From contig ML978133.1 in NCBI GenBank assembly GCA_010015805.1, positions 496,001 to 560,000 of the forward strand: DNA of 64,000 nucleotides. Direction: 5' to 3'. Both the position numbers and the translations under genes were made by a program. Within the stretch, counting starts at the first letter, position 1. Each line of letters begins with the position of its first letter. Shown here one piece after another: positions 1,530 to 5,140 of the stretch. The notes beneath the pieces are model-generated. The model saw only the letters and a list, made by a program, of their open reading frames with translations, was not told the DNA's origin and made no database searches. This stretch comes from Rhizodiscina lignyota. Its lineage: Eukaryota.

Positions 1530-1961
1530 CTGAGATTTGGCATCATGATGGTATCGAATATATGCAGGAGTTCTTTCAGAGGTGAAGGTTGGCAGTAGAT
1601 ATGGGACGTAATTCACGTCCACAGTGTACACTTAGAGGTACACGGCATTTAGAGTAGAAGAAAGGTCCCCAAAGTTGGATAAATTATTCACACAATGACA
1701 TCTTTAAGTTCCGTCTAGTTGGTGATGTTATGTGCTGGACGTCTTGTGAATCTTTCCGCGAAATGCATTGAAGTTGAGGAGGCAAGGGGTTATGTAGAGT
1801 CGCAGAGTCATTTGAGGTGCGCCGCTGAGTACTTCTACGGGGGACTGCGGTCGAACTTCTGCCATCAACTCACTCACCTCCACCACCGTCTGCGATCATA
1901 AATTGAAACGATCACGGCGTCGCGTCTTCCAACTCGCATCTCCTATTTCCCGTCGCAAGTC

Positions 1962-2684
1962 ATGACAGAGAGCGATGATGAGTTCTACACCATCCCGATA
2001 AAAGATCAGCGGGTCTTCGGCGCCGGCATCAAGCGCAAGCGCGTGCCTTTCGTCGCCGCCTCGTCTCCTGCCACCTCCGCCACCGCGACACCTCCAACTT
2101 CCGCTCGTTCAATCGCGGAGCGGTACCTCTCCATAGTTGGAGTAGGTCCTGAAGCGGAACGCTCTGTCTCAGCGCCGCCCACCGTTGGTCCAGTGGAAGA
2201 GGCGGAACTGGCGAAATGTGACATCTGCAATCGACCTATCGATGATGACTCCACGGCCGTTCCACATGAAGCCTCTCTTGCGCACCAAGTCTGTCTCGAG
2301 CATTCCCATGGCCCGTCGCATATAGATCGCCAGAGGAAGGGGCTGTCATACCTCCAGGCATACGGATGGAACCCAGATAGCCGCCAAGGCTTGGGAGCGA
2401 GTGGCGAAGGGAGACTGTATCCAGTCAAACCGAAAGAGAAGCGCGACACTGTAGGCTTGGGCGTAGACATCAAGGCTTTGAAAGCCGGGAAAGTGGCGCA
2501 GAAGGTGGAGAGACTGAATGCAAAGGAAGTCAGGCAGCGGGAGGCCAACGACAAAAAGAGAAAGGATAGGATTCAGAAGATGTTCACGGCTAATGACGAT
2601 GTTGAGAGGTATCTTGGGGCGTTAGATACGACTTCTGTACCTTCTGGGTGGCCATTATCCAAGTCGTTCCGAAAGAAAGCATAG
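1962..2684 (+). CDS. G-patch domain protein with a C2H2-like zinc finger
   Basis: G-patch GLSYLQAYGW..GLGASGEGRLYPV..GLG; CDIC...HEASLAH motif; single exon. Confidence 0.9.
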   Translation: MTESDDEFYTIPIKDQRVFGAGIKRKRVPFVAASSPATSATATPPTSARSIAERYLSIVGVGPEAERSVSAPPTVGPVEEAELAKCDICNRPIDDDSTAVPHEASLAHQVCLEHSHGPSHIDRQRKGLSYLQAYGWNPDSRQGLGASGEGRLYPVKPKEKRDTVGLGVDIKALKAGKVAQKVERLNAKEVRQREANDKKRKDRIQKMFTANDDVERYLGALDTTSVPSGWPLSKSFRKKA

Positions 2685-2704
2685 CGATGGTGTTTTGATG
2701 GTTT

Positions 2705-2910
2705 GGCCTTGAAGGCCGGAAAAGTAGCGCAGGAGATGGAGAAGCTGAATGCAAAGGAATCAGGCAGCGGACGACAGGAAGAGGAAGCATAGCATTCAGA
2801 AGATGTTTACGACCAATGACGATGTTGAGAACTTTGGGCAAGGCTTCAATACCTTCTGGGTGCCCACCATCCAAGTCTTTTCGGGAGAGGGCATAGCGCT
2901 GGAGTTTTTG
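2705..2910 (+). repeat. Degenerate tandem duplicate of the G-patch gene 3' end (source about 2474-2697)
   Basis: Co-linear similarity, e.g. ctgaatgcaaaggaa, attcagaagatgtt, aatgacgatgttgaga, taccttctgggtg, atccaagtc and gcatagcg occur in both copies. The copy has small deletions. Confidence 0.9.
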
Positions 2911-3052
2911 GTTGAAAGAGCGTCGAAATTTGGGATGGTGTTTTGGTGAATCTTGCTGGCGCGTTGGTAGAGTCCTCATTATTGCTCGACGCGCCCGCCG
3001 TTAGCCGCGCCGCAGCCTGTATGTGCTATTTCTCATACTGTGTTATATGTAC

Positions 3053-3225
3053 AACTCGCGTATTCTAATCCCTGTGCTTTCGAGCACTGGTTGGGAAAAC
3101 ATCAGGTAATGCTGAGTTTATCCTGGCCCCTCTTGCCCTTAGGGGCTGAGACCTCGTTGAGACGGACTGGGGGGTTCAGGTTTTTTTGCCCTTTGCTACG
3201 AAGGGTTCGATTCTCGCGGACATCA
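3053..3225 (+). ncRNA. Candidate structured ncRNA (H/ACA snoRNA-like), followed by a T12 tract
   Basis: Three hairpins, including a UUCG-capped stem at 3074-3087. ACA at 3220-3222 lies 14 nt after the last apical stem. There are antisense tracts to LSU rRNA, but no clean ANANNA box at the expected positions. Confidence 0.5.
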
Positions 3226-3499
3226 TTCCCTCCCTTTTTTTTTTTTGCTCGACTTTTACAACTACCGCGTTATATACATTTTGCAGAATGAAAATGACAT
3301 CGAAAATGAATTTCCATAGAGAACCACACAAGTATCTGCTTTTTTTCTTGAATCGTGACCCTTTATAGAAATGCTTGCGAGAGATGCATGTGGCCCGAGC
3401 TCCCCTGATGACATCTTGGTCCCTTGAAGCTCTTAAAACTTTCCACTGACCCCCATCCGGCTATTCCACCATCGTCCTTCACAGGACGGATAGTTCACA

Positions 3500-4757
3500 A
3501 TGAAGCCGATAATAGCTGTACCAGCTATTCTAGCGATCGTATACCGTGCCTGGTCTCGTAATTCTCTCACTCCGCTTGGTCTCTTCGTTGCAACATTGAC
3601 CGCAGTCGGGCACGCGATCCACCCATGGAGCTTCTCATTCACCTTACTAGGCGTTTTCTTCCTTGCGGGGACCCGAGTGACAAAGGTATTAATCCTCAGT
3701 ATTTCTTATTTCATTGTCAACCAATTTTAATACAGCGTTGCGGTTCAATTGCTGACGCTGGGTTCAATAGGTAAAGCACGACATCAAAGTTCGCCTCACA
3801 CAATCAGCGTCCGGAGCCAGCGGAGGTGAAGGACCGCGAACGCACGTCCAAGTCCTCGCGAACTCCCTCGTGGCTTTGATCCTCACAGTTCTGCACGCAT
3901 GGGTTCTGTCGAAGCGGGATGTGGCGCAGAGTCAGGAGGACTGCTGGCATCGTCCCAGCGCAAAATATCCGGAAGATGTGCTTGTGGTGGGGATTGTAGC
4001 GTCCGTGGTCTCTCAGGCACACAAGTTAATACCAGGGAAACAAGTGGGCTAACGAGGGCACAGAAACTACGTGGCAGTCGCGGCAGACACGTTCTCGTCT
4101 GAACTCGGTATCCTCGCTTCCTCATCACCGCGACTCATCACGGCTCCGTGGCGGACTGTACCGCGAGGGACAAACGGCGGCGTCACGCTCACAGGCATCA
4201 TTGCGGGACTTGCAGGCTCAGGGCTTCTTGCTGCTACGGCTGGACTACTGCTCCCATTCTGTGCAGGGACAGGAGCAACGAAGCGGAAGATCCCAGGCTT
4301 CGGTCACATAGACGAATACTCATGGGACTGGCAAGGCAAGCTTGGTTTTGTACTTGCCATGACCGCCGTGGGACTCGGTGGGAGCCTGCTCGATTCGATC
4401 ATGGGAGCGCTGGTACAGGCTAGTGTGGTCGATGTGAGGACGGGCAAGGTGGTTGAAGGAGATGGAGGGAACAGAGTTCAGTTGCATAGTCGAAAGTCAT
4501 GGCAGGTCGATGGGCCAGCTTCGAATACTACCGGAGCAAAGGCATCGCTTGGTCAAGCACAACGCAGGAAGGGTGTCGAGAGCAGCGGGACCGAGGAGAA
4601 AGGTGAAAGCAGAAGGCTGGAGGTTGGATGGGATTTACTCGACAACAATGGGGTCAATTTCGCCATGGCATTCGCCATGAGCGCTGCGGCCATGGTGGGA
4701 GCTTGTATAGTGTGGGAGATACCACTCGGTGCGGTTGTCGATAGCATTCTGAACTAA
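3500..4757 (+). CDS. DUF92/TMEM19-family integral membrane protein
   Basis: GGEGPRTHVQVLAN, ADTFSSELG, GTNGGVT, GSLLDS and LDNNGVN motifs; introns 3685-3770 and 4001-4063. Confidence 0.92.
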
Positions 4758-5140
4758 GCGAGTCTTCCAGAAGGCGAAAATATGACGTCTCATCTCAATC
4801 GTCAATCGCCCACACTGCAGATCTGTCAGATCGTGGCGGATCTTCCGACTGAAACCTGAGGAAGGGGATTCAGACACGTCGACTTCCACGTTGACGAGAT
4901 GCATGAAAGCAGGGAAACATGCAGAATGGCGTCGATGAACGCTGCAGGTGCATGACTATACGACATGTCTTATGGGCCAACGTTCAAAGGATGAGAGAGG
5001 AGTCACAATGGGAGTGGCATGGCTGGAAGAGCCGGTTCTTTTGAATTGATCGTGGTCCTTGTATATACGGAGATGAGGAGGTACACAGCATGGAACTTGT
5101 AAAGGCGCCCGTTTCAAAGGATAAAGTGCTGCCATGACTC

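Follow-up and report, generated by a model that had tools for sequence, protein, structure and literature searches.

A short dispersed repeat with Pol III-type gene signals between a G-patch gene and a DUF92 gene in a fungal genome

Between two ordinary protein-coding genes of a fungal, Dothideomycete-like genome lies a short repeat that carries gene signals of the Pol III type. The window referred to throughout is the whole 64-kb stretch of DNA that was analysed, and the locus within it is made up as follows.

1962 to 2684, plus strand: G-patch gene, upstream of the repeat (PF01585, E 1.8e-07)
3012 to 3228, plus strand: copy of a dispersed repeat, at least 90% identical with other places in the genome
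3045 to 3169, plus strand: identical core of the repeat, recovered as a 125-nt contig with 0 differences at a depth of 637, against about 150 for single-copy DNA
3500 to 4757, plus strand: DUF92 gene with introns, downstream of the repeat (PF01940)

The preliminary description of this DNA had named the neighbours as a G-patch and a DUF92 gene, and the Pfam matches bear this out; in the DUF92 gene, PF01940 is matched by exon 1 (E 1.3e-10) and by the large exon (E 2.7e-39). The G-patch protein has 736 homologues, the nearest of them 73% identical, and those of the Dothideomycetes Lepidopterella palustris, Glonium stellatum, and Coniosporium apollinis are 55–57% identical. With identities of this order, no relative is near enough for synteny to be followed at the nucleotide level.

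Both genes have surroundings worth recording in their own right. The G-patch open reading frame (1962–2684) encodes 240 aa and the database protein of the window has 215 aa, covering 90%; a later ATG is probably the start of the annotated model. The 3' end of this gene (2474–2696, the stop codon region included) recurs as a degenerate tandem copy at 2705–2908, in three collinear blocks that are 80–85% identical and spaced 212–231 nt from start to start, and about 100 nt separate this degenerate copy from the start of the dispersed repeat. Further upstream, 594–1529 holds a 311-aa open reading frame without a Pfam match at E up to 0.01. On the other side, a T7 run (3340–3346) stands between the repeat and the start codon of the DUF92 gene, and of the five runs of at least T7 that the window has on either strand, three fall within 3181–3346; this T-run-rich region before the start codon may be the DUF92 promoter region.

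The repeat stands out when the contigs of one public DNA run (probably the source assembly) are aligned to positions 1900–4900 at a likeness of at least 80%. Twenty-nine pieces aligned, 16 of them at 99% identity or more, 10 at 95–99%, 3 at 90–95%, and none below 90%. The summed contig depth is 147–152 in the flanks, rises to 1596 in the bin 3011–3111 and to 1938 in the bin 3112–3212, and is back at 229 in the bin 3213–3313. The locus's own contigs (1900–3059 and 3171–4900) break at the element, and at least four other long contigs (70,791, 52,869, 20,865, and 11,167 nt; depth 151–159) end inside it; they bring other flanks, show 2–3 differences, and match this locus in depth. Given the jump in depth and the long contigs that end inside the element, it is close to certain that 3012–3228 is one copy of a dispersed repeat. 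The number of copies is roughly 5–12, an approximate figure since summed contig depths over-count.

The copies are not equally alike over their whole length. The core at 3045–3169 is identical in about four genomic copies, and in the shared edges there are 2 differences over 55 nt and 2–3 over 58–61 nt. Among the loose ends listed, those on the left lie before 3012, 3017, 3022, and 3044, and those on the right behind 3210 and 3228. In two left-flank consensus strings, a resemblance to the window at 2982–3011 can still be made out by eye, and thus the 5' edge of the repeat may fall near 2983. Behind 3228, two right flanks are pyrimidine-rich and agree with each other at 0.72, unlike the CCTCCC-T12 of this copy, and neither contains a run of T4 or longer in its 30 nt.

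Elsewhere, nothing similar turned up. No further copy was found within the 64-kb window, neither by blastn (word size 7) nor by repeat search. Neither metagenome contigs nor viral contigs had a match to a 20-mer of the core, prokaryote genomes had 0 matches to a 23-mer taken from the element's 3' part, and the 83-aa open reading frame across the element has no homologue among proteins at E up to 10. What looked like a second partial copy downstream (direct repeats D1–D3) was rejected, its local alignment score of 20 comparing with 21.2 ± 3.1 for shuffled sequence and being equalled in 203 of 300 shuffles. Flanking direct repeats were not significant either (300 shuffles), and no inverted repeat joins the ends of the element, whether it is taken as 2983–3228 or as 3012–3228. 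A MITE was likewise rejected, terminal inverted repeats being absent at these ends and the fold having a z of about −1.

Within and just behind the repeat, the following smaller features are of interest.

3044 to 3048, plus strand: TATA-like TATAT, 30 nt upstream of G3074; its role is suggested by analogy with yeast U6 genes, as treated in the excerpt of PMC5855946
3074 to 3087, plus strand: 5' hairpin GTGCT-TTCG-AGCAC, the putative start of an RNA, present in every predicted fold
3081 to 3093, plus strand: A-block-like GAGCACTGGTTGG, imperfect and weak, compared with the consensus by eye
3125 to 3131 with 3141 to 3147, plus strand: hairpin B, GGCCCCT with AGGGGCT, 7 pairs, partly present in the minimum free energy (MFE) folds
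3181 to 3187, plus strand: T7 run, possible Pol III terminator of a putative RNA about 110 nt long
3189 to 3195 with 3199 to 3205, plus strand: apex of hairpin C, CCCTTTG-CTA-CGAAGGG, above a G-U-rich base
3204 to 3214, plus strand: B-block match GGTTCGATTCT, the sole GGTTCGANTC match in the window
3220 to 3222, plus strand: ACA triplet inside the shared repeat, with no supported role
3229 to 3246, plus strand: CT-rich tract and T12 (3235 to 3246), outside the shared repeat

A TATA element at about −30, a B block (GGTTCGATTC at 3204), and a T-run terminator are thus all present as motif matches. Taken alone, the B block is not significant, as GGTTCGANTC occurs once in the 64 kb on both strands with 0.73 occurrences expected. 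The A block consensus is TRGCNNAGTGG, to which GAGCACTGGTTGG bears a resemblance by eye, with mismatches and one extra base. The T12 run is the window's only run of T8 or longer (0.41 runs of T9 or longer are expected); it starts 21 nt after the B-block match, which itself lies 17 nt after T7, and for any given site the chance of such a T run starting no more than 40 nt away is about 0.0003. The preliminary description had allowed for a Pol III unit marked by GGTTCGATT and the T run, and this hedge gained support, the window's only B-box match standing 21 nt before its only long T run. The extent of the repeat points the same way: the shared stretch begins about 30–60 nt before the TATA element and ends 14 nt beyond the B block, which fits what a unit needing both TATA and B block would keep.

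Considering these motifs, which were read in this one copy, we suggest that the repeat may be a Pol III unit, or derived from one, with a yeast-type (SNR6/tRNA-like) layout, and we give this reading a probability of about 0.5. TFIIIC would bind the B block (and the A block) of the repeat, TFIIIB would be placed over the TATA element at 3044–3048, and Pol III would produce an RNA starting at G3074, which termination at T7 would leave about 110 nt long and termination at T12 about 165 nt long. We infer transcription, its start and end, and the spread of the copies from a repeat and a set of motifs that are themselves directly observed. The CT-rich tract with T12 (3229–3246) could be a second terminator, a DUF92 promoter tract, or both. 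As for the family as a whole, it is most likely SINE-like or pseudogene-like, and selfish or decaying.

Several observations speak against a Pol III origin. None of the candidate spans folds significantly: on the plus strand, 3053–3246 has an MFE of −60.6 kcal/mol against −56.4 ± 4.4 for 200 shuffles (z −0.96; 30 of the 200 shuffles equal it), and the alternative spans 3074–3239 and 3074–3187 reach z values of −1.29 and −1.25. The minus strand of 3053–3246 gives a z of −0.09 against shuffles. No Rfam family matches, U6, tRNA, 5S, and SRP included; at the gathering score there were 0 Rfam matches across the whole 64-kb window, and the tRNA, 5S, and SRP families do not match the element at E up to 10. 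By itself the B-box match does not exceed chance, and the A-block-like stretch is imperfect. Moreover, T12 lies outside the shared part, and the right flanks of two other copies are without T4 or longer in 30 nt. Against a SINE-like form in particular, there is neither a significant flanking direct repeat nor an A-rich tail, the tails of the element being pyrimidine-rich and variable, and the homology takes in at least 30–60 nt before the putative start, sequence that would be missing from a retroposed SINE.

Among known Pol III systems, the U6 genes of yeasts offer the closest layout. In Saccharomyces cerevisiae SNR6 and in Schizosaccharomyces U6, as far as the excerpt of PMC5855946 describes them, the counterparts of the element's TATA at about −30, A-block-like stretch, and T-run terminator can be recognized, and SNR6 shares the late B block, which in the element comes 17 nt after T7. 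The putative RNA would also resemble SNR6 in its G-start 5' hairpin and, if T7 terminates, in a length of about 110 nt. In SNR6 itself, about 200 bp lie between the A block and the B block, the latter being downstream of the coding region. In Schizosaccharomyces, Frendewey is said to have placed the B box inside U6 introns in 1990. On the other hand, the element differs from SNR6 in not being U6 and in being multi-copy, at about 90–100% identity. The box ACAGAGA is a motif of U6 snRNA and is absent from 3074–3239, and RF00026 has no match at E up to 10, hence a U6 snRNA was rejected.

Among described fungal repeats, AfuSINE2 of Aspergillus fumigatus belongs to the class that comes closest. According to the excerpt of PMC5063351, AfuSINE2 copies are 140–493 bp long and low-copy, have degenerate A and B boxes and no cloverleaf fold, and sit in gene-rich intergenic DNA; the element is similarly short, low-copy, intergenic, and without a cloverleaf. 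It differs from AfuSINE2, within the limits of the same excerpt (PMC5063351), in that its B box lies near the 3' end, whereas the A and B boxes of AfuSINE2 belong to a 5' tRNA-related head, and in that none of the 4–14-bp target-site duplications of AfuSINE2 was found for it. A further difference is that the homology among copies includes sequence upstream of the putative start. In being a dispersed, multi-copy, short element, it has what is expected of a SINE; a typical tRNA-related SINE was nevertheless rejected, as the B box lies 14 nt from the 3' edge and the homology begins at least 50 nt before the A-like box. To our knowledge, short Pol III-type repeats have been little described in Dothideomycetes.

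A possible, though doubtful, alternative is that the repeat is the relic of a mobile element that Pol III does not transcribe, such as an LTR on the minus strand (solo or truncated) or some other small non-autonomous element, with its B box and T runs coincidental or belonging to the insertion site. A multi-copy stretch with unique flanks and without a significant fold is what such a relic would leave. If the element is taken as 2983–3225, with edges that are uncertain, its ends would also fit a solo LTR, with TG (2983) at the start and CA (3224–3225) at the close. On the minus strand of this copy, TGATG follows immediately upon a polypurine tract, and the same junction occurs in two other copies (in the loose-end consensus behind 3228), much like the passage from a polypurine tract into an LTR. 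The agreement of 0.72 between two right flanks further suggests that the element may extend past 3228 in those copies. What is missing, however, are the accompaniments of an insertion: by eye, no 4–6-bp target-site duplication was seen at the 2983/3225 ends, flanking direct repeats are not significant, and there are no terminal inverted repeats. No retroelement-like sequence adjoins the element, and the open reading frame across it is without a homologue. The left edges vary among copies (3012, 3017, 3022, and 3044), the DUF92 gene begins 254 nt after the T12 run, and the relic would demand that the window's only B box and only long T run came together in a coincidence of roughly 1 in 3000.

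Within the Pol III reading, a working small-RNA gene family is less likely than a selfish or decaying one. Such a family would be a multi-copy set of U6/SNR6-style genes for a non-U6 RNA of about 110 nt, its copies kept alike by selection or gene conversion, and we regard it as unlikely. In its favour, the core shows 0 differences in about four copies while the edges vary, the homology is bounded by the promoter elements with fuzzy, copy-specific edges, and up to 20 U6 gene copies are possible in fungal genomes (Canzler 2016, as cited in the excerpt of PMC5855946). However, recent copying predicts an identical core equally well. No known family matches, the U6 box is lacking, the fold is not significant, and no look-alike appears in the metagenome, viral, or prokaryote collections. 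That the repeat is a U6/SNR6-style Pol III gene family with an identical core, making an RNA of about 110 nt that is neither U6 nor tRNA and possibly forming an undescribed fungal class, is a slightly less likely proposition again.

Very improbable, by comparison, is a tRNA gene hidden by mRNA-type introns. A tRNA-like T loop and an acceptor-like 3' end at 3204–3225 are followed by a T run, and about 110 nt separate the A-like box from the B box, yet no cloverleaf emerged from the element directly or after removal of inserts. ARAGORN found none, and Rfam tRNA is unmatched at E up to 10. GT-AG removal yielded 0 tRNAs in 482 constructs (unspliced and all one- and two-intron combinations), and removal of any single stretch of 15–170 nt yielded 0 in 15,366 at the default score, with ARAGORN run without a positive control; the relaxed score gave 6 weak matches split between two isotypes. 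By eye, the 5' strand of the T stem is unpaired and the 3' strand of the acceptor has no partner inside the repeat.

The preliminary description had favoured yet another identity for 3053–3246, namely an atypical H/ACA snoRNA with three hairpins, of which hairpin A would guide pseudouridylation in LSU rRNA at UUUCCC-UC-AGGAUA. Its account of the DNA itself is accurate: all the listed hairpins, the ACA, and the T12 run were found in the sequence at their given positions. The basal stem of hairpin A pairs 3053–3060 with 3110–3118 (8 pairs, one bulged T), and its apical stem joins 3067–3070 to 3089–3092 beneath the GTGCT-TTCG-AGCAC hairpin at 3074–3087. The ACA does fall exactly 14 nt after the apex of hairpin C, and the absence of a properly spaced H box, already conceded in that description, holds true, with no ANANNA in the hinge (3119–3166).

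The rRNA side of the proposal is likewise correct in part. The LSU motif given there, GTTTCCCTCAGGATAG, is genuine and occurs in at least 109 metagenome stretches; LSU_rRNA_eukarya was found on all six long loci tested that carry it, complete in five and cut at the 3' end in one. In the rRNA, AATCGAACC and GTAGC sit just upstream of GTTTCCCTCAGGATAG, and the segment reads AATCGAACCATCTAGTAGCTGGTTCC..CCGAAGTTTCCCTCAGGATAGC. Yeast 25S rRNA carries m3U956, Psi960 (snR8), and Psi966 (snR43), and the spacings of the three fit the U's of the LSU motif (table of PMC5699541, in excerpt). By the same spacing, the proposed pocket would address Psi960, the known snR8 site, rather than Psi966/snR43 as had been claimed (PMC5699541, in excerpt). 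A U that is modified in yeast would thus be flanked by a 6+6 pairing that includes one G-U and has its strands in the right topology. Compared with yeast snR8 and snR43 (25S Psi960/Psi986 and Psi966, respectively), the element shares this bipartite complementarity of 6+6 nt around the Psi960-equivalent U and differs in lacking an H box and, for this pocket, any box at the proper spacing, in its three hairpins, in matching no Rfam family, and in being multi-copy.

The pairing loses its weight once it is set against the rest of the window. Both strands were scanned for pockets of 6 nt, an upper stem closed by at least 4 pairs, and another 6 nt around an unpaired UN, with the rRNA of one locus (L060: LSU, 5.8S, and part of SSU) as the target. 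With any number of G-U pairs permitted, the scan gave 1573 matches; a limit of one G-U left 48. The pocket at 3061–3066 and 3093–3098 therefore does pair with LSU rRNA, as was proposed, but it is 1 of 48 equal-or-better ones in the window. An H or ACA box stands 14–16 nt from the pocket in 4 of these 48, and the proposed pocket is not among them. Hairpin C, which does have its ACA at 14 nt, leaves 3 nt for the 3' strand of a pocket and has no target. The layout of three hairpins also departs from the hairpin-hinge-hairpin-tail order of H/ACA RNAs, and the T7 run lies inside the proposed RNA.

The further antisense tracts, which the preliminary description took to cluster on the same rRNA segment, fare no better. 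As a control, 1316 other 194-nt windows were each scored on their best 62-nt LSU segment, and 56% (6-mers) or 60% (7-mers) of them cover some LSU segment equally well. The segment that the candidate covers best differs from the claimed one; the claimed segment is covered equally by 1.5–3% of the control windows, as expected from the after-the-fact choice of one segment among about 60. In a blastn search of 2960–3260 against six rDNA loci, the best match had an E of 0.21 and lay off the claimed site. The complementarity to rRNA is at chance level in the pocket scan, the window cover, and blastn alike, and a fragment derived from rDNA was rejected on the blastn result. The covariance-model check fails the proposal too, as no Rfam snoRNA family was matched near the element at E up to 10 beyond C/D-box noise, the best being SNORD48 at E 0.55. 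A C/D snoRNA on either strand was rejected as well: a single C-like box occurs, on the minus strand, and the rRNA matches of the guide stretches are limited to 9-mers in single reference loci.

With no H box, an unspaced pocket, no Rfam match, complementarity at chance level, and a multi-copy locus, the H/ACA reading is refuted for practical purposes. The new rRNA pseudouridylation guide that had been proposed is, at this level of confidence, not there, and bench work on the wrong model is spared. One observation made among the rRNA sequences stands apart from the repeat: a metagenome contig of 5969 nt (L019/L020) carries the LSU motif twice, in opposite orientation and about 2.9 kb apart, which means either that the rDNA there is arranged in inverted orientation or that the contig was misassembled.
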